64,000 nucleotides of DNA from Parcubacteria group bacterium (GTDB taxonomy: Bacteria; Patescibacteriota; Minisyncoccia; Phycocordibacterales; WO2-35-19), in the NCBI GenBank assembly GCA_012514175.1, contig JAAZAU010000012.1, positions 110,897-174,896 on the forward strand, written 5' to 3'. Below, piece by piece: positions 12,011 to 29,641 of the stretch. The number at the start of each line of letters is the position of its first letter. Position 1 is the first letter of the stretch. Position numbers and translations under genes: made by a program. Below the pieces are notes generated by a model that was given only the letters and a program-made list of their open reading frames with translations, was not told the origin of the DNA and made no database searches.

Positions 12011-12063
12011 CATCCTCATCGCAGAAAAGCGATATTTCAACCTCATCTGAAAAAGAAAAGGGT

Positions 12064-12862: not shown

Positions 12863-13810
12863 TCACAAATTTTTTTTGAAATATTCGACAATTGAATCAC
12901 GGATTGAGCCGTCATAGAGATAGTCGACCCACCACCATGCACCACAAGTGTTTATCTCAAGAAAATAAAGGTTGCCCTCGCTGTCTTCCATAAAATCTGC
13001 TGAACAATATTCAATAGATAATCTCTTCATGAGAATACGAAGTTGGCTTGTTGTCTTGTCATCAAAGTCGCAAGGTTTGAATGACACTCCTGTCGATCCA
13101 CACCTTCGGATGTCCTCAAGCTGCTGTTCGTTTGGTTCACAACAAGCTGCAAAAACATCATCTCCAACAACTACAACACGGTAGTCTTTTTTACGAACTC
13201 GATACTCTTGATATATAACCGGGCAAAATTGAAGATCGGCATCTTTTTTCAGCCAATCTTCCGGGACAATTTTAGTGTATGCCGCCATGGTTTCTCCTGG
13301 TAAAACAACCCAGGGGGTTGCCAGATTTTTGGCGACCGTTAGGTTTTTTTCTGAAAATGCCCTAATGTCTTTTGGTGTATTGGATATCAACGTAATTGGT
13401 ATCTTTAGTCCAGCCGATTTTGCATACATAAGCTGAAGTGGTTTGTTTGCGGCATAGATTATGTTTTTTGGGCTGTTTAGCCACGGCACACCAAGCAAAT
13501 CAAATATCGCAAACTGCGCAGCCCAAAGACTTCTACGTTGCAGATTTTCTCCGACAGAAGATTTTTGGTTCAAATACGGAGGAAGCTGTTGGCACCAACC
13601 GATTCCAATATGAGAACAGTTTATCTCCCGCCCATCGCAGAAAAGCGATATTTCAGTCTTATCACCATCAATAGCTAGAGAAACCTCAGATGCGTTTTCT
13701 TCCGCATCACAATTGAAACGGAATACAGGTACGCCATCCTGGCGAAGAGCATCAATCACAGTGTCGGCTTCAAAACCACGCTGGTGCGTTACGATCAAAA
13801 CGGTTTTCAT
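12863..13810 (-). CDS. ATP-grasp ligase of the microviridin/graspetide maturase family (MdnC/MvdD-like)
   Basis: 315 aa. N-terminus MKTVLIVTHQRG...VFRFNCD parallels MdnC MTVLIVTFSRD...AFRFDTD. Conserved LQFCP and YFLEIN motifs of RiPP ATP-grasp macrocyclases. AAGGAAGG SD 6 nt upstream. Confidence 0.85.
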   Translation of the reverse strand: MKTVLIVTHQRGFEADTVIDALRQDGVPVFRFNCDAEENASEVSLAIDGDKTEISLFCDGREINCSHIGIGWCQQLPPYLNQKSSVGENLQRRSLWAAQFAIFDLLGVPWLNSPKNIIYAANKPLQLMYAKSAGLKIPITLISNTPKDIRAFSEKNLTVAKNLATPWVVLPGETMAAYTKIVPEDWLKKDADLQFCPVIYQEYRVRKKDYRVVVVGDDVFAACCEPNEQQLEDIRRCGSTGVSFKPCDFDDKTTSQLRILMKRLSIEYCSADFMEDSEGNLYFLEINTCGAWWWVDYLYDGSIRDSIVEYFKKNL

Positions 13811-17819: not shown

Positions 17820-18479
17820 ATGAACGAACTAGTTATTTTTGATGTAGATGGAACTATTTTAAAAGGACAGAGTCAAAAATTGTTTCTAAACTACATGTTT
17901 AAAGAAAAGTACATTTCTTTATTTGGATTTATAAAACTGAATCTCTGGTTTATTTTTTATAAGTTAGATTTTATAAAAAATCCCTTACCCGCAATAAATT
18001 ATGCTTACAGTTTTTTGAAAGGTAAAAGCATTTCTGAAATAGAAAATTTGATAAATAATTTTTTCAATTCGATTTTAAAAAAATATATTTTTAAAGAAGT
18101 AATTGAGATCATAAATGACCATTTAAAAAATGGAAGAAAAGTTATCTTAGTATCAAATTCAGTTGATATTTTAATAAAAAAAATAGCTGAATATTTAAAC
18201 GTTTCTGATTTTATATCTACTAAATTAGAAGTTCAAAACGATAGATACACAGGAAAAATAATCGGAAGCATGATGTATGGTGAAAATAAAATTAAAGCCG
18301 TAGAACAATATGCGCAAAAGAATAATATTTCATTAAATAATTCTTGGTCTTATGCAGATCACTATTCTGACATACCTTTGTTATTGAAAACGACATATGT
18401 TTTTGTGGTTAACCCATCAAAAAAATTACAACAAATAGCTACAGAAAAAAATTGGCAAGTGTTACAATTTAACATATGA
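17820..18479 (+). CDS. HAD-IB family hydrolase (phosphoserine phosphatase-like)
   Basis: 219 aa with DxDGT motif I (VIFDVDGTILKG) and HAD-IB cap region. Preceded by a TGGTATAAT extended -10. Confidence 0.75.
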   Translation: MNELVIFDVDGTILKGQSQKLFLNYMFKEKYISLFGFIKLNLWFIFYKLDFIKNPLPAINYAYSFLKGKSISEIENLINNFFNSILKKYIFKEVIEIINDHLKNGRKVILVSNSVDILIKKIAEYLNVSDFISTKLEVQNDRYTGKIIGSMMYGENKIKAVEQYAQKNNISLNNSWSYADHYSDIPLLLKTTYVFVVNPSKKLQQIATEKNWQVLQFNI

Positions 18480-20065
18480 ATATATTCGGAATAACAAGCT
18501 TGATGATATTCTTTGCAGGAATTGGCTTTGGTCTTTTTTTGTATTCATCTGACAGAACTTCAAAACTTAATAAATCTTGGTTTATAGTTTCAATTTTTAC
18601 AGCCTTATGGGGGTTATCACTTTTCGGGGTCACTTCCGCGGACACAGCAAACATTGCTATGAAATGGCAATGTTTGCTTGATGTGTCCGCTACTTTTATT
18701 CCAGTCACATATTTTTATTTCGTTTGTCAACTATTAAAAATAAAAAGAAAAGCCTGCAATAGATGTATTTTAATTTTGGGAATTGTAATAGCAATATTTT
18801 CCTTAACTCCTTATCACAAAACAGAAATTACTACAAGATATGGTTTTTTTTGGGTTGATCCGGGGGAATATTACTTCTTGTTTTCATTTTTCTTTGGAAT
18901 TGTAACTCTCACATCACTTTTCTTGTTAATACAAGGATACTTCAAAAACAGAAAAGAACCCCTGTTTAGAGCTCAAATAAGAAACACATTAATAGCGGGC
19001 ATAATAGGTTTTGGAGGAGGTATCACCAATTTCTTTCCACAACATATAGATATATACCCATATGGTAATTATTTTATTTTACTTTATGTGTTTTTCATGA
19101 GTTATGGAGTATTGAAATACAAATTACTAAACACAAAAATAATATCTGCTCAATTGTTAGCGGGAGCAATTGTTTTAATATTTTTATTTGATCTATTAAG
19201 ATTTAATTACAATTTATATGATTGGATTGTAAAATTTATATTATTTATACTTGTTTTGTTATTTAGTGTTTTCTTAATAAGAAGCGTATTTAAAGAAATA
19301 GAGCAACGTGAACATATAAAAAACCTCGCTAAAGATTTACAGGAAGCAAATGAAAAATTGAAAGAATTGGATCAAATGAAATCAGAATTTATGTCCTTAG
19401 CCACACACCAAATTAGAGCGCCACTGACCGCTATCCGAGGTTATTCTTCAATGCTTCTAGAAGGGGATTTTGGAGCTTTGCCAGCAAAGGCTGCCGATTC
19501 TATAGAAGTCATAACCAAATCCAGTCAAAACCTGATTGATATCGTGAACGATTTCCTCAACATTTCCAGAATAGAGCAAGGGAGAATGGTTTATGAAAAA
19601 AGTGTTTTTGATTTAGTGAAATTGGTAAAAGAAGTAGCGGATGAGTTGAGACCTAACATTAAAGACGCTGGGTTAGATTTGAAAATCAATATAATACCAA
19701 ACAATCTTTTTATGGAAGTGAACGGTGATAGAAACAAATTGAGACAAGTTTTCAGCAATCTTTTAGACAACGCCACCAAATACACACTGAAAGGTAGTAT
19801 TGAAATTTCTATTACAGAAGAAAATTCTAAAGCAAAGATAGAAGTAAAAGACACCGGTGTTGGCATAGACCCAGCAGAAACCGAAAAACTTTTCGGAAAA
19901 TTTAACAGAGCCAAGGACGCAAACAAAACCAATGTTATTGGCACTGGAATCGGTCTTTATCTTGCTAAAAAAATAGTGGAAGCTCACGATGGTCGTATCC
20001 AGGTTTTTTCAGAAGGTTTAGATCATGGCACCACTTTTACCATTGAATTACCTTTGGAAAAATAA
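18476..20065 (+). CDS. sensor histidine kinase with multi-TM N-terminal sensor domain (orphan, no adjacent response regulator)
   Basis: 529 aa with about 7 predicted TM helices, then a coiled coil, H-box HQIRAPLTAIRGY, N-box and G-boxes (GTGIGLYLAKKIVEAHDGRI). Confidence 0.9.
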   Translation: MNIFGITSLMIFFAGIGFGLFLYSSDRTSKLNKSWFIVSIFTALWGLSLFGVTSADTANIAMKWQCLLDVSATFIPVTYFYFVCQLLKIKRKACNRCILILGIVIAIFSLTPYHKTEITTRYGFFWVDPGEYYFLFSFFFGIVTLTSLFLLIQGYFKNRKEPLFRAQIRNTLIAGIIGFGGGITNFFPQHIDIYPYGNYFILLYVFFMSYGVLKYKLLNTKIISAQLLAGAIVLIFLFDLLRFNYNLYDWIVKFILFILVLLFSVFLIRSVFKEIEQREHIKNLAKDLQEANEKLKELDQMKSEFMSLATHQIRAPLTAIRGYSSMLLEGDFGALPAKAADSIEVITKSSQNLIDIVNDFLNISRIEQGRMVYEKSVFDLVKLVKEVADELRPNIKDAGLDLKINIIPNNLFMEVNGDRNKLRQVFSNLLDNATKYTLKGSIEISITEENSKAKIEVKDTGVGIDPAETEKLFGKFNRAKDANKTNVIGTGIGLYLAKKIVEAHDGRIQVFSEGLDHGTTFTIELPLEK

Positions 20066-20141
20066 TAGGGTAAAATTTGTATTCCATAATAAAAAATGTA
20101 AGTCTATACAAATTTGTAAAGTAGTCTAAAATCTAAAAAAA

Positions 20142-21038
20142 TTGTATGATGCAACGTATATGCTAAAAAATAAATGTTTTGAATTTCTATCCTGTCCTAT
20201 AGATGGAAGCGACATGGTCTCTTTAGGAAAAAGTGTTTGTTGTGTAAATAAACACTCTTTTGACGTATCAAAAGAAGGATATATAAATATGCTAACGAGC
20301 GATAAACGCTTCAAACAGAAAATAGGTGACGTAAAAGATATGCTACTAGCAAGGTCTAATTTTCTACAAAGCGGATACTACAATTTTCTTTCAGAAGAAA
20401 TAAATAAAATAGCAATAAGATATTTACAAAATAATAACAATAAAGATGGCTGTATTTTAGAAGTAGGTTGTGGCACTGCTTTTTATCTAAAAAGATTAAA
20501 AGACAACATAGATAATGATTTAAAAAAAGAATTTTGCTATTTTGGGACTGATATATCAAAAGAAGCAATCAAAATCTCAGCAAAAAAATATAAAGACATA
20601 AATTTCATAGTTGCAGATACTTACTTTAAAATTCCTATAAAAAACAAAACTGTAAAAATTATTTTAAATATATTTTCTCCCAGAAATCCGGAAGAATTTT
20701 CAAGATTATTAGACGATAAAGGGATTATAATAACAGTGATTCCAAACGAAAATCATCTTAACGAACTTATAGAAAAATTCGGACTAGTAAAAGTCGAACA
20801 AGAAAAGAAAAAACATCTAATGGACGCTCTTGATGGTCAATTTGACAAAATAGAAGACTATAATTTTACGAAGAAAATTTCTTTAAAATCTAATTCTATC
20901 ATAGACTTAATTAAAATGGGACCAAGCTATAAATGTCTAAATGATAAAAAAATAATAAACATAAAAAATATGAACAAAAATTTATTAGAAGTAACTGCTT
21001 CTTTCAATATCTTAGTTTTTGTTTCAAAAAGCCGGTAA
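20142..21038 (+). CDS. RlmA-like 23S rRNA (guanine-N1) methyltransferase
   Basis: 298 aa. N-terminal Zn-ribbon CPIDGS...CCVNKHSFDVSKEGYINML matches the RlmA CPxC...HxFDxAKEGYVNLL pattern. Class I SAM motif LEVGCGTAFY. Confidence 0.75.
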   Translation: MYDATYMLKNKCFEFLSCPIDGSDMVSLGKSVCCVNKHSFDVSKEGYINMLTSDKRFKQKIGDVKDMLLARSNFLQSGYYNFLSEEINKIAIRYLQNNNNKDGCILEVGCGTAFYLKRLKDNIDNDLKKEFCYFGTDISKEAIKISAKKYKDINFIVADTYFKIPIKNKTVKIILNIFSPRNPEEFSRLLDDKGIIITVIPNENHLNELIEKFGLVKVEQEKKKHLMDALDGQFDKIEDYNFTKKISLKSNSIIDLIKMGPSYKCLNDKKIINIKNMNKNLLEVTASFNILVFVSKSR

Positions 21039-21060
21039 CCAATACAACTGGTTACCGGCT
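21030..21060 (+). terminator. bidirectional terminator between rlmA-like and DUF397 genes
   Basis: AGCCGGTAACC-AATACAACT-GGTTACCGGCT perfect 11-bp stem. Confidence 0.7.
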
Positions 21061-21078
21061 TGATAAGTAATGACTTTT

Positions 21079-21294
21079 CTAAGACATTTCAAATTCGTTG
21101 TCTTTGACACCTTTCGAAAATGCCTGCCATTCACCACGTGAAAAACACAAAACTGAACCTTCTGGATTCTTGGAATCCCGAACGAAGACCATCTCATCCT
21201 TGAAAGCCACCTCAACACACCGATTGTGTGTATATTGGGAATAGGATGACTTTCGGAAATTCAACCCTTCGATATTCTGCACATTCTTGCTCAT
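21079..21294 (-). CDS. DUF397 domain protein
   Basis: 71 aa: FRKSSYSQYTHNRCVEVAF...VFVRDSKNPEGSVLCFSRGEWQAFSKGVKDNEFE closely matches the actinomycete DUF397 consensus (WRKSSYS..NCVEVA..VRDSKDP.GP.L.F...EW.AF..GVK.GEFD). Confidence 0.8.
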   Translation of the reverse strand: MSKNVQNIEGLNFRKSSYSQYTHNRCVEVAFKDEMVFVRDSKNPEGSVLCFSRGEWQAFSKGVKDNEFEMS

Positions 21295-21297
21295 AAC

Positions 21298-22110
21298 TTA
21301 TCCCTCCTGAGAAACAATGTTGTGATATTGTTTCCAGATTTGTAAGTATTTTTGGTAAGACCCCACGTTCTGTTTTATAACAAAACGATTTATATTGTCT
21401 CTCTCATCTCCTTTCTCACTTTCTAAATCATTTATAAGTCTTAATACTTCATTTGGTTTTGGCCCAGAAAAATGAACCAGTCTTGCATTAGGATTGAAAC
21501 CCCACCAAGGTTTCCAGTCATATTCAGGTGATAAGTTATCCCATTTTTGAGAATAAAATGTATTCCACGCTCCTTGACTACAAGGACCATGTCCTGCAAA
21601 AGAAAAATCAAAATTGTGCGAAATCAGATGTTTAACAAATTTATCGTAATCCTCCCTTAATCTTTGAAGATTTAACACCATTACTCCAGTACTCACAAAT
21701 GTCCAATCCAACACATCCCAATCTGGTGGTGCAGAAAAGTATCTAGGTTTATGGTCAAATTCCAAATTGTTCATAACCATAATATCTGCATCAAGATATA
21801 TCGCGTACTCATCATCGATACTGTTTGCTTTGAAAGCATTAGCTGTTTCAATACACAAATAAGCTCCAGCACAATAATCGAAAGATTTATTACCTGTATA
21901 TGTCATTTCAATTTCTTCCAAAAACGGAACCTGCCATCTAATACAAGGTACCTTGCGATTATAGAGCCAAGACATAAAGCTAATATCCTGACCGTCATAC
22001 AAACAACATACATCAACATTAGAATTTAATTGTGCTGTTAATACCAAGACCTTAGCCATCTCGATATAAGTAGGATCTCTATCAGTTACCGTAAATACAC
22101 ATTTCATCAT
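21298..22110 (-). CDS. glycosyltransferase family 8 (LgtC/glycogenin-like)
   Basis: 270 aa with DxD motif (YLDADIMV) and the GT8 C-terminal HFSGPKP (I-HF-G-x-KPW-like) motif. Sits 4 bp upstream of the DUF397 gene on the same strand. Confidence 0.8.
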   Translation of the reverse strand: MMKCVFTVTDRDPTYIEMAKVLVLTAQLNSNVDVCCLYDGQDISFMSWLYNRKVPCIRWQVPFLEEIEMTYTGNKSFDYCAGAYLCIETANAFKANSIDDEYAIYLDADIMVMNNLEFDHKPRYFSAPPDWDVLDWTFVSTGVMVLNLQRLREDYDKFVKHLISHNFDFSFAGHGPCSQGAWNTFYSQKWDNLSPEYDWKPWWGFNPNARLVHFSGPKPNEVLRLINDLESEKGDERDNINRFVIKQNVGSYQKYLQIWKQYHNIVSQEG

Positions 22111-22213
22111 CTTCTTCTCCCAATATTTTTAAAATTGTAAAACAACAATTACATCCAATTTAGATTGGATTATATAAATCACAAATAGTCAAATACAGAA
22201 ATTACCATTTAGA

Positions 22214-22271
22214 TCACATTCGGAAATTTAGGTCATGGCACCACTTTTACCATTGAATTACCTTTGGAAAA
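22214..22271 (+). pseudogene. remnant copy of the histidine-kinase 3' end (direct repeat of 20005..20061)
   Basis: 39 nt (22233..22271) are identical to 20023..20061. Flanking bases are also similar. The fragment encodes ..GHGTTFTIELPLE.. in frame, like the kinase C-terminus (DHGTTFTIELPLEK*). Confidence 0.7.
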
Positions 22272-22299
22272 CAGAAAACAATTTACAAAATAGTCTATA

Positions 22300-22328
22300 T
22301 TGACTTTAAGTGCTAAATTTGCTATAAT
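22300..22328 (+). promoter_or_regulatory. consensus sigma70-type promoter
   Basis: TTGACT - 17 nt - TATAAT. A short hairpin plus T-run follows at 22357..22384, then the DUF167/tyrS genes. Confidence 0.55.
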
Positions 22329-22420
22329 TAGGGGTAGTGCTTCTCATAGAAATCAAAAAAGAGCCTCATCAGCTCTTTTTTATTTAGGAAAATATTCAAA
22401 AAAATGCTATTTTATAAAAG

Positions 22421-22681
22421 ATGAAAGTTTATGTGAAAGCCAAAACCAGAGCAAAGGAAGAAAAAATTGATCCAGCCACGCTGGAGTTGTGGCAAGCAAA
22501 GAAAAATCACGATTCTTCTGATTTAAACTGGTTAACTGTATCTGTTAAAGAACCACCAACCCAAGGTCAAGCCAACATAGCAATAATGAAAGCGTTGGCA
22601 AAATTTTTTGGCGTTTCCAGTTTTCAAGTGCGCTTGGTTTCGGGCTTTTCCTCCAAACAAAAGGTTTTTGAAATTTCATAA
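22421..22681 (+). CDS. DUF167 (YggU-like) protein
   Basis: 86 aa with GQANIAIMKALAKFFGVSSFQVRLVSGFSSKQKVFEI matching the YggU/UPF0235 pattern. Confidence 0.75.
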   Translation: MKVYVKAKTRAKEEKIDPATLELWQAKKNHDSSDLNWLTVSVKEPPTQGQANIAIMKALAKFFGVSSFQVRLVSGFSSKQKVFEIS

Positions 22682-22697
22682 AAAGAATGGTAGGATA

Positions 22698-23939
22698 ATG
22701 AATAATATGGATCCATTAAAAAATTTACAGGACAGAGGATTTGTAAAAAATTGCTCAAACGAGTCTGCTTTGCGCGAAAAAATCACCAAAGAACCAATAA
22801 CTTTTTACGTGGGTTTTGATGCTACTGCCGACAGTTTGCACGTAGGTCACTTAATGCCCATTATGGCCGTTGCCCATCTTCAAAAAGCGGGGCATATTCC
22901 TATTTTGGTAGTTGGTGGTGGCACAACCCTCATCGGCGATCCCAGCGGTAGGACCGAAATGAGAAAAATGCTTTCTCTTGAAACCATTATGCATAATGCT
23001 GAACAAGTCCAAAAACAACTCAGTAAATTTATTTCTTTTGAAGACCAAAAAGGCATGTTTCAAAACAACCTAGAATGGTTAGCAGATTTAAAATACATTG
23101 AGTTCCTTAGAGATGTTGGTAAATATTTCAGAGTTAATGAAATGATAAAATCTGAGGCTTACAGACTACGCTTAGAAAGACAAGATGGTCTTTCGTTTAT
23201 TGAATTTAACTACCAACTTTTGCAAGCTTATGATTTCTTAATGCTGAACGATAAATACGGTTGCGTTTTACAAATTGGCGGTGATGATCAGTGGGGCAAC
23301 ATCGTAGCGGGGGTGAGTCTCATCAGGCAAATGAGACAAAAAGAAGTTTACGCTCTCACTTTTCCATTATTAGAAACAGCAAGTGGTAAAAAAATGGGGA
23401 AGACCGAAGCTGGTGCAGTCTGGTTTGACGCTCTGAAAACTTCACCTTTTGAATATTATCAATATTGGATCAACACTGATGACAGAGATGTGATTAAATT
23501 TTTGAAATTTTTCACTTTCTTGTCTTTAGACGAAATCGCAGAAATGGAAAAACTTACCGGCGCCGACATCCGTCAAGCTAAAGAGACACTCGCTTTTGAA
23601 GCCACTAAAATCGCCCACGGTGAAGAAGAAGCAAAAAAAGCTATGGAAGCTTCTAGATCACTTTTCGGCTCTGATGTAAAAGATCACGAAAACATCCCTA
23701 GTAAACAAGTAGAAAAAAAATTATTTGAAAAAGGTATCTCGGTTGTTGATTTATTTTGTATAGCAGGATTAGCCACAAGCAAAACCGCATCACGAAAACT
23801 TATTGAACAAGGGGGCGCATACATAGAAAATGAACGTGTCACATCAGCTGAAAAAATCATCACCGAAAAAGACCTGGTTGATAACTCCATTCTTTTAAGA
23901 CAAGGCAAGAAAAATTATATTAAAGTAGTTTTGAAATAA
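22698..23939 (+). CDS. tyrS: tyrosine--tRNA ligase
   Basis: HIGH motif in FYVGFDATADSLHVGHL, KMSKS-like KMGKT and C-terminal S4-like domain. The track ORF starts at an upstream TTG overlapping DUF167. The ATG at 22698 (MNNMDPLKN) is preferred. Confidence 0.92.
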   Translation: MNNMDPLKNLQDRGFVKNCSNESALREKITKEPITFYVGFDATADSLHVGHLMPIMAVAHLQKAGHIPILVVGGGTTLIGDPSGRTEMRKMLSLETIMHNAEQVQKQLSKFISFEDQKGMFQNNLEWLADLKYIEFLRDVGKYFRVNEMIKSEAYRLRLERQDGLSFIEFNYQLLQAYDFLMLNDKYGCVLQIGGDDQWGNIVAGVSLIRQMRQKEVYALTFPLLETASGKKMGKTEAGAVWFDALKTSPFEYYQYWINTDDRDVIKFLKFFTFLSLDEIAEMEKLTGADIRQAKETLAFEATKIAHGEEEAKKAMEASRSLFGSDVKDHENIPSKQVEKKLFEKGISVVDLFCIAGLATSKTASRKLIEQGGAYIENERVTSAEKIITEKDLVDNSILLRQGKKNYIKVVLK

Positions 23940-28539: not shown

Positions 28540-29061
28540 TTATTCGCAGGGATTTTCTTCTTGGTCAGAACCGTAAAAACCACCACTAAGCAACGCGTTG
28601 AAATTTTGGTAGGCTTTGTTTCGGTTAGGATCACCTTTGAGCATTTCCACTTCCAAAAGCGATGATTCTTCATACATACCCTCTATGCTACCAGTTCTCT
28701 CAAACAAACAATAATTACCTTTACTGATAGCAGCTCTACCCGCTTGAGCAGCACTGTCATCTCCAGCATTGCCAGCGTAAACACCGGTTTGCAAAGCTTT
28801 GGCTTTTTGTCTTAGCGCAGACTGCATAACCGCGCTGTCTGGGTATCGGTCTACAATATATTTATCAAGATCATCCCAAACTCCGTTAGCGTCATCGTCA
28901 TAACCAAAACCATCGTAAGTGCTCTGCGAGGGATTGTTGGTGCCACCAGTATTGGTCGTTTTGGTGTTAGTGGCTTTTTTAGATCCACCAAAACCACAAC
29001 CCAATAAAACAATGCTCAACAAAAGCACGATCGGCAAACAAATAAGCAACGGTTTTTTCAT
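28540..29061 (-). CDS. small secreted lipoprotein, paralog A of a tandem pair
   Basis: 173 aa with lipobox LLGC. Shares YDGFGYDDDANGVWDDLDKYIVDRYPD...LQTGVYAG..DDSAAQAGRAAISK..EESSLLEVEMLKGDPNRNKAYQNFNALLSGGFYGSDQ-ENPCE with the next gene. Stretches of >100 nt are near-identical at DNA level. Confidence 0.6.
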   Translation of the reverse strand: MKKPLLICLPIVLLLSIVLLGCGFGGSKKATNTKTTNTGGTNNPSQSTYDGFGYDDDANGVWDDLDKYIVDRYPDSAVMQSALRQKAKALQTGVYAGNAGDDSAAQAGRAAISKGNYCLFERTGSIEGMYEESSLLEVEMLKGDPNRNKAYQNFNALLSGGFYGSDQEENPCE

Positions 29062-29137: not shown

Positions 29138-29641
29138 TTAAAATGCAGGTGTGAGAGGTTCGCAGGGATTTTCTTTCTGGTCAGAGCCGTAAAAACCACC
29201 ACTAAGCAACGCGTTGAAATTTTGGTAGGCTTTGTTTCGGTTAGGATCACCTTTGAGCATTTCCACTTCCAAAAGCGATGATTCTTCATCAAACCTCCTG
29301 ATGTCACCATCAGTTCTTTCAAGTAAACAATAAAGGGATTTGCTTATGGCAGCTCTACCCGCTTGAGCAGCACTGTCATCTCTAGCACTACCAGCGTAAA
29401 CACCAGTTTGCAAAGCTTTAGCCATTTGCTTCAACGTGGCCTGCATAACCGCGTTGTCTGGGTATCGGTCTACAATATATTTATCAAGATCATCCCAAAC
29501 TCCGTTAGCGTCATCGTCATAACCAAAACCATCGTAAGTGCCAAGTTGAGAAGAATTTTTAGACCCATCAAAATTATAAATCAAAAAAATAACACCTAGT
29601 AAAAACAAAATTGATAAACAAACGAACACAATTTTTTTCAT
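29138..29641 (-). CDS. small secreted/membrane-anchored protein, paralog B of the tandem pair
   Basis: 167 aa with signal-anchor N-terminus. Shares long near-identical nucleotide blocks with 28540..29061. Confidence 0.6.
   Translation of the reverse strand: MKKIVFVCLSILFLLGVIFLIYNFDGSKNSSQLGTYDGFGYDDDANGVWDDLDKYIVDRYPDNAVMQATLKQMAKALQTGVYAGSARDDSAAQAGRAAISKSLYCLLERTDGDIRRFDEESSLLEVEMLKGDPNRNKAYQNFNALLSGGFYGSDQKENPCEPLTPAF

Follow-up and report, generated by a model that had tools for sequence, protein, structure and literature searches.

A 45-nt fragment of a histidine kinase gene on the far side of a three-gene module in a Parcubacteria genome, tentatively read as a duplication scar

In a stretch of 64,000 nucleotides (nt) from an uncultured Parcubacteria (Patescibacteria) bacterium, contig JAAZAU010000012.1 of assembly GCA_012514175.1 and hereafter the window, the 3′ end of a sensor histidine kinase gene recurs in the same orientation 2.2 kb downstream of the intact gene. 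Three genes, encoding an RlmA-like methyltransferase, a small DUF397 protein, and a GT8-like glycosyltransferase, lie between the two copies, and a DUF167 gene and tyrS lie beyond the second. The organism is known from several public metagenome assemblies, at least one of which derives from an anaerobic digester, and its kinase is identical to NLE07543.1. The locus, in coordinates of the window, comprises the following features.

18476–20065, plus strand: sensor histidine kinase gene, intact, ending in ...ELPLEK* (Pfam HisKA_7TM, HisKA, and HATPase_c).
20017–20061, plus strand: repeat copy 1, the 45 nt that end the kinase coding sequence once the final A of its last codon is left off; a G→A strain single-nucleotide polymorphism (SNP) lies at 20022.
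20062–20078, plus strand: native kinase stops (TAA TAG) and start of the ancestral spacer, from a blastn alignment with contig L053 of a relative.
20160–21038, plus strand: gene for an RlmA-like 23S rRNA guanine-N1 methyltransferase, with a zinc ribbon and a Rossmann methyltransferase domain (GC 0.27).
21029–21061, unstranded: G+C-rich hairpin of 13–15 bp at the convergent ends of the RlmA-like gene and the GT8-DUF397 operon.
21079–21294, minus strand: gene for a small DUF397 (BldB-family) protein of 71 amino acids (PF04149, 68.1 bits against a cutoff of 24).
21298–22110, minus strand: gene for a GT8-like retaining glycosyltransferase of 270 amino acids, with a GT-A fold and an invariant DxD motif.
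22213–22293, plus strand: stretch of the kinase frame that stays open across copy 2, ITFGNLGHGTTFTIELPLENRKQFTK*, bounded by stops and without a start codon; not a gene.
22227–22271, plus strand: repeat copy 2, an isolated kinase 3′-end fragment in the divergent intergenic region between the GT8-like and DUF167 genes.
22300–22328, plus strand: strong sigma-70-like promoter (TTGACT, 17-nt spacer, TATAAT, with TG), predicted to drive DUF167-tyrS.
22382–22426, plus strand: end of the ancestral kinase-DUF167 spacer, 40/45 identical to L053 and reaching the DUF167 start codon.
22421–22681, plus strand: DUF167 (YggU-family) gene, the ancestral downstream neighbour of the kinase.
22698–23939, plus strand: tyrosyl-tRNA synthetase gene (tyrS; Pfam).

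A preliminary description of this DNA had reported a 39-bp duplication of the kinase 3′ end, and this is confirmed: the 39-mer is present exactly twice in the window, at 20023–20061 and 22233–22271, whereas 0.00 matches with up to three mismatches are expected by chance (100 dinucleotide-preserving shuffles). A repeat finder adds six bases leftward, giving a full repeat of 45 nt (20017–20061 and 22227–22271) with 44/45 identity in the window. The sole mismatch is a strain SNP, G→A at 20022, which replaces Gly with Asp in the kinase motif EGLGHGTTF; in the conspecific contigs L001, L002, L004, and L028, both copies carry G and the repeat is perfect (45/45). The sequence of copy 2 is invariant across all conspecific contigs examined. 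Past the 45 nt, no significant alignment is found on either side, with 0.10–0.67 of shuffled controls and 0.21–0.91 of controls from real A+T-rich windows of the same genome scoring at least as high; the imperfect extension of about 20 nt described previously is thus no better than either set of controls. It had also been noted that the second copy still reads in frame, and ITFGNLGHGTTFTIELPLENRKQFTK can indeed be read in the kinase frame, but this reading is bounded by a stop at each end and has no start codon. Copy 2 is untranslatable on its own and encodes nothing. The 45-mer shows no unusual secondary structure (z = +0.7), neither copy matches Rfam, and inspection by eye, with a dif/Xer-like architecture in mind, reveals only an imperfect 7/11 palindrome.

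Over 12 kb, contig L001 departs from the window at no position other than the SNP at 20022. This SNP is phylogenetically incompatible with a second one at 18825, all four combinations occurring among five haplotypes, which implies either recombination between strains or conversion from copy 2, in which the base is always G.

The repeat is not an assembly artefact. Exact-sequence lookup of the DUF167, GT8-like, and RlmA-like proteins recovered the conspecific contigs, and four long ones (92–442 kb), from different samples in the ENA and JGI collections, have the same arrangement at 99.90%–99.99% identity to the window over 12 kb, with both repeat copies in unique context in all four. Logan contigs assembled at k = 31 start or stop exactly at the repeat (22256, 22242, 22227, and 20017), the behaviour that a real 45-nt repeat produces in a de Bruijn graph. 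In practice, therefore, the repeat breaks or misjoins short-k metagenome assemblies at this locus.

The history of the locus can be approached through its relatives, the nearest of which, among kinase homologues in Patescibacteria, share at most 70% protein identity with the kinase of the window. In L053, whose kinase is 76% identical in DNA, the kinase stop is followed by about 95 nt and then the DUF167 start; in L036 (51% protein identity), DUF167 begins 10 nt past the stop and is followed by PIF1, tyrS, and Methyltrans_SAM, a gene set matching that found downstream in the window. The RlmA-like, DUF397, and GT8-like genes are absent between kinase and DUF167 in both. Since the kinase directly precedes DUF167 in these two relatives, the adjacency is ancestral and the three genes represent an insertion in the window lineage, in agreement with the preliminary description. 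The kinase-DUF167 junction is rearrangement-prone, as L021 (kinase 70% identical in protein) has a different gene there, encoding an M16 peptidase, followed by DUF167 and tyrS; no repeat surrounds this M16 insertion. In L022 and L023 (59%–60%), the kinase is followed downstream by an unrelated methyltransferase gene and trpS, and the outer backbone trpS-aspS-scpA-scpB-S11 is common to L023 and the window.

The M16 peptidase gene wanders within the acyltransferase-HAD-kinase neighbourhood of relatives, being located in the kinase/DUF167 gap in L021 (4116–5399), upstream of the HAD gene in L040 (3704–4954), further upstream in L022 (4030–5295), and downstream in L035 (9748–11103). It is absent from the 64-kb window.

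An attachment (att) site or target-site duplication predicts that the insert runs from the inner edge of copy 1 and that the original chromosome resumes at the outer edge of copy 2. The blastn alignment between L053 and the window, however, passes the kinase stop and reaches 20078: the window reads ...TTG GAA AAA TAA TAG GGT AAA ATT T and L053 reads ...TTG AAA AAA TAG GGT AGA ATT T, such that the stop and the start of the spacer (TAG GGT AAA ATT T) agree at 13/14 positions in the same register, the window having one extra stop codon. The far end of the L053 spacer matches 22382–22426 at 40 of 45 positions, 25 of them in one unbroken block (25/25), with a score of 33.5 where no control exceeded 21; this match lies 110 nt past copy 2, and the sequence right after copy 2 has no match to the start of the L053 spacer beyond a 7-mer. 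Copy 2 is thus an isolated kinase fragment with novel (foreign) junctions on both sides. Because native sequence follows copy 1 and foreign flanks surround copy 2, the latter does not behave as one half of an attL/attR pair or of a target-site duplication, and the earlier suggestion that integration at the kinase 3′ end left a target duplication is not supported. An argument from the kinase tail (ELPLEK* versus ELPLENRKQFTK*) is weakly informative alone and is superseded by this alignment; kinase orthologues terminate one to five residues past ELP.

The inserted genes themselves do not look foreign. Homologues of the GT8-like protein are few and are located on Patescibacteria-type contigs, with none on viral contigs. 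In every homologous locus recovered (L037–L047), the DUF397 gene lies directly downstream of the GT8-like gene, and in the closer loci (L038, L040, L041, and L043) the whole module is present with a convergent RlmA-like gene, at identities of 58%–64% for GT8 and 49%–53% for RlmA (46%–64% for the module overall). The neighbours of the module vary by lineage: RsmE and an ABC ATPase; M16-HAD-kinase and an acyltransferase; a 267-amino-acid protein; or MBOAT and GSCFA. The GT8-like→DUF397 pair with its convergent RlmA-like gene is therefore a native, conserved module of Patescibacteria, and acquisition of a foreign cassette, as first proposed, finds no support in this conservation.

Nor does base composition point to a foreign origin. 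The GT8-like and DUF397 genes had been described as visibly G+C-richer, yet their GC contents (0.348, with third-position GC [GC3] of 0.280, and 0.417, respectively) are ordinary, falling within about 1.5 standard deviations (SD) of the mean GC for the 59 genes in the window (GC 0.364 ± 0.036; GC3 0.292 ± 0.038). The outliers are instead A+T-rich: the RlmA-like gene (GC 0.266) and a HAD-hydrolase gene upstream of the kinase (17820–18479; GC 0.242) are 2.7–3.4 SD more A+T-rich than the other 57 genes. Several short-read contigs terminate inside the RlmA-like gene, which may reflect a dip in coverage in A+T-rich DNA.

The reading favoured here, held tentatively and at a little short of an even chance, is that the repeat is the scar of a duplication and trimming that accompanied or closely followed insertion of the module. 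The ancestral state would have been the kinase, a short spacer, and DUF167. Into this spacer the module (RlmA-like → ← DUF397 ← GT8-like, with its own terminator) would have been joined by illegitimate or short-homology recombination without a dedicated recombinase, the left joint falling 17 nt or more beyond the kinase stop, within the spacer, and the right joint at 20017, with 49 nt separating it from the end of the kinase stop codon. Whatever lay between these joints would thereby have been duplicated on the far side of the module, and a small deletion would then have removed the right-hand duplicate beyond 45 nt. Such a placement of the joints accounts for a fragment positioned exactly on the other side of the inserted block. 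How, and in what order, the recombination events took place is inferred rather than observed. As the non-coding copy matches perfectly (45/45), the event would be recent relative to the split from known relatives, yet older than the sampled population, the members of which are at least 99.9% identical. The scar is most likely non-functional.

One known parallel is provided by the pseudogene fragments that remain when a tandem duplication is followed by loss, a route by which gene order changes. They likewise are isolated and start-less, keep the orientation of the intact gene nearby from which they derive, and are bounded at either end by novel junctions; further duplication relics also occur in the same window. 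In contrast to such fragments, only 45 nt are left with no fuller intermediate, and the placement of the piece precisely on the other side of an inserted block is not something that a random duplication would predict. In homology-facilitated illegitimate recombination during natural transformation, one joint is homologous and the other illegitimate, and recipient sequence at the latter can be duplicated or deleted. The present locus is similar in that DNA would have been joined without a site-specific recombinase; it differs in that it points to no donor, and a one-step version of this process requires that the recipient kinase tail differed from the ancestral state seen in L053.

Several points weigh against an insertion-coupled duplication. 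A second event is needed to trim the right-hand duplicate, and all that might remain of a longer duplicate is a colinear 15/18 match (20111–20128 versus 22280–22297) that is not significant; if this trace were real, the distribution of mismatches (0/45 versus 3/18) would be oddly uneven. No intermediate was found, the sampled strains all being at least 99.9% identical and the next relatives about 76% identical in kinase DNA. Nor was a fuller duplicate seen in related strains, no relative with kinase identity between 99% and 70% having been found. Finally, the source of the module within the window lineage is unaccounted for.

Two other sets of repeats in the window bear on the question. A 31-nt direct repeat (12017–12047 and 13633–13663; 28/31, of which 23 nt are exact) has one copy inside a minus-strand ATP-grasp (MvdD-like) gene, in its 5′ part, and the other 1.6 kb away, in an intergenic region beyond the next gene; this second isolated gene fragment looks like a relic of a collapsed tandem duplication, and here an insertion scar is impossible. 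Tandem paralogues of unassigned function also lie at 28540–29061 and 29138–29641 on the minus strand (173 and 167 amino acids), with DNA 89%–98% identical over 131 and 231 nt, indicating recent tandem duplication or ongoing conversion. As duplication relics in the same window, both lend support to reading the kinase fragment as a duplication scar.

Among the rival explanations, the strongest, albeit unlikely, is a later tandem duplication of a 2,210-nt unit (20017–22226) that took place when the module was already present and whose imprecise collapse left 45 nt. Native sequence past copy 1 and an isolated copy 2 with two novel junctions are exactly what this predicts, and the window supplies precedents in the ATP-grasp fragment and the extant tandem paralogues. 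The kinase ending ELPLEK* also resembles the short tails of orthologues (ELPLKK* and ELPLYK*), as expected if copy 1 were untouched. However, three events are required (insertion, duplication, and deletion), as is the coincidence that the left edge of the unit fell within about 60–140 nt of the left boundary of the module, and homologous recombination normally removes such duplications precisely, without a trace. The preliminary description had offered, as its second option, a tandem kinase duplication whose second copy was overwritten; this came nearer to the flank evidence than did integration, although the reading preferred here is an insertion-coupled duplication. Two related schemes were tried and rejected. 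For a remnant of a paralogous kinase, no additional kinase similarity exists upstream of copy 2; a block swap via tandem duplication and loss from an order like that of L040 fits in orientation, but the kinase of L040 shares only 40% identity. Elsewhere in the window, neither the module nor the kinase gene has left remnants.

A templated filler, in which a polymerase engaged in an unrelated deletion or repair in the GT8-DUF167 intergenic region switched to the nearby kinase 3′ end, copied 45 nt, and switched back, is improbable. It would account for a short, sharp-edged, direct copy about 2 kb from its source with flanks unrelated to those of the source, and the ATP-grasp fragment is similar in both size and distance. 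No microhomology is visible just outside either boundary, though, and the position of the source at the other edge of the inserted module is left unexplained; the mechanism, moreover, is poorly documented in bacteria.

No more probable is a model in which the repeats are attL and attR of an integrase-less cassette, formed when a circular module recombined with the kinase 3′ end through a 45-bp core and remained mobilisable in trans. Cis-mobilizable elements (CIMEs), which retain att sites after losing the integrase, are an established concept (PMC5704250). The likeness is considerable: perfect direct repeats of tens of base pairs, a length typical of att cores, bracket a compact, self-contained gene set with no recombinase inside, and one of the two forms the 3′ end of a chromosomal gene, and the contexts of the module differ among lineages. 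The model nevertheless predicts the native stop and spacer after copy 2, whereas they follow copy 1, and the right flank of copy 2 is unlike the start of the L053 spacer. The cargo, furthermore, is a conserved chromosomal module with repeat-free flanks in the two other genomes carrying the whole module that were checked (L040 and L038); no direct repeats flank it in any of L037–L040, and no kinase-like 45-mer lies beside it in nine related loci scanned (L021–L023 and L035–L040).

Searches for the machinery or products of such an element were likewise negative. No integrase, transposase, or recombinase domain is encoded by any open reading frame (ORF) of at least 120 amino acids, which extends the earlier, correct statement that the block contains no integrase or transposase to the whole 64 kb, and no integrase is found near the module among those loci with annotated neighbours. 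No related integrase-bearing element was found either. The expected products are an empty site (kinase|45-mer|CAGAAAAC...DUF167) and a circle or tandem (GT8-side|45-mer|ATAATAGGG). A kinase variant corresponding to the empty site, which would be 535 amino acids long, is missing from the 90% cluster of the kinase, and none of about 20 contigs carrying DUF167 has an empty site. A scan of genome contigs with the kinase returned only distant kinases (27%–44% identity), and exact 31-mer scans of the repeat core against metagenome and viral contig collections gave 0 matches.

Among assembled contigs, a single excision-type junction (GT8|core|RlmA) was seen, in L005. This scaffold (L005/L027; GCA_001577815.1, LSQX01160174.1) reads, at about 1340–1450, from the GT8 side through the 45-mer to 48 nt of the RlmA side, as a circle or tandem would; beyond these 48 nt, it continues with NN, a Nextera adapter remnant (GTATAAGAGACAG), and then the DUF167 side. 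Since the undetermined bases and the adapter remnant adjoin it, the junction is probably chimeric. Logan contig L028 (20017–22256), which comprises the repeat, the block, and 30 nt of the repeat, was considered as the signature of a circle and rejected, because contig starts that include the whole repeat are also seen on the DUF167 side (L010) and in L052; their occurrence on the module and DUF167 sides alike is graph behaviour. The feature therefore resembles attL/attR or a CIME but fails the defining trait of native flanks, and it behaves like a gene-fragment relic of duplication and loss. The stronger claim, that a recombinase-less cassette of 2.2 kb with the repeats as its att sites moves between chromosomal sites in Patescibacteria by means of a host or helper recombinase acting in trans, is less probable again, albeit that, if true, it would explain both the lineage-specific neighbourhoods of the module and the circle-type junction in one scaffold.

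A transposon can be set aside. Target sequence is directly repeated on either side of the inserted DNA, as in a target-site duplication, but such duplications are usually 2–15 bp, far below 45 nt, the inserted DNA does not start at the edge of the repeat, and neither a transposase nor terminal inverted repeats at the ends of the block were found (0.08–0.10 of controls scoring at least as high).

It is very improbable that copy 2 is kept for a function, for instance in regulating the divergent promoters of GT8 and DUF167-tyrS or in donating sequence for conversion of the kinase. In favour of a function, no conspecific contig shows a variant of the copy, only 28 nt separate it from the −35 element of a strong promoter downstream, and conversion from it could account for the incompatibility of the SNPs at 20022 and 18825. 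Conservation is uninformative, however, among strains that are at least 99.9% identical everywhere; recombination between strains explains the incompatible SNPs equally well; and copy 2, which lacks structure and an Rfam match, is absent from relatives that share the DUF167 leader. Almost no credence is given to a collapsed or chimeric join through the repeat during assembly. Short-k contigs do end at the repeat, and one public scaffold is a chimera at this point, but the four 92–442-kb contigs all reproduce the arrangement, each with both copies in unique sequence.

An insertion-coupled duplication scar of this kind is an ordinary genomic event in an unusual host and matters little on its own. 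It is, nonetheless, a datable footprint of a recent change of gene order in the streamlined genome of an uncultured Parcubacteria bacterium from anaerobic digesters, and it shows that genomes of this sort rearrange without obvious mobile-element machinery. Its probable effect at present is that 45 bp of perfect homology could mediate deletion of the module.

The calls for the three genes of the block, made from sequence alone in the preliminary description, hold. The first product scores 42.3 bits against Zn_ribbon_RlmA (Pfam cutoff 27) and aligns with NCBIfam PRK11088 from end to end at 184 bits, short of the 303 set as the equivalog cutoff; it also falls below the equivalog cutoffs for the NCBIfam 23S rRNA G745/G748 N1-methyltransferase families, and is thus best described as RlmA-like rather than assigned to a particular target base. 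The gene may be co-transcribed with the kinase, because the sequence from the kinase stop to the RlmA start revealed no terminator-like site. At its other end, the hairpin at 21029–21061 (fold energies of −22.5 and −24.6 kcal/mol; z of −5.5 and −6.1) is predicted to be a bidirectional terminator shared with the GT8-DUF397 operon; in Rfam, only two chance matches, well below the gathering threshold, were obtained, at this 21.0-kb hairpin and at the RlmA 3′ end.

The glycosyltransferase is weak by Pfam, scoring 18.3 bits against GT8, under the cutoff of 24.3, and a sequence search of the PDB with it returned nothing. An AlphaFold model built with 13 homologues (pLDDT 92; pTM 0.91) structurally matches glycogenin, the UGGT catalytic domain, a GT8 protein, and LgtC (E of 1e-10 to 1e-9; TM about 0.6), and D107 and D109 of the DxD motif are invariant; assignment to GT8 is thus confirmed by the predicted fold. 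PADLOC found nothing in the three block proteins. In Streptomyces, DUF397 (BldB-family) proteins are partners of XRE regulators (PMC10364602 and PMC10294661), whereas the module in Patescibacteria pairs a BldB-family protein with a glycosyltransferase. Because MBOAT and GSCFA genes follow the GT8-DUF397 pair in L044, a role for the pair in cell-surface modification is suggested. This conserved GT8-like/DUF397(/RlmA-like) module is possibly of more use than the repeat itself.

Downstream of copy 2, the leader of DUF167-tyrS consists of the promoter, the −10 region of which is weakly similar to the L053 spacer, then a hairpin with a T run (22354–22390), and then the 25-nt block that is identical (25/25) in L053 (window region 22300–22430; L053 1481–1545) despite the kinases being only about 76% identical in DNA. 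The leader has no Rfam match. Within the 25-nt block lies a mini-ORF with a stop that overlaps the DUF167 start, encoding MLFYKR* in the window and MLFL* in L053, and on these features the leader may be regulatory.

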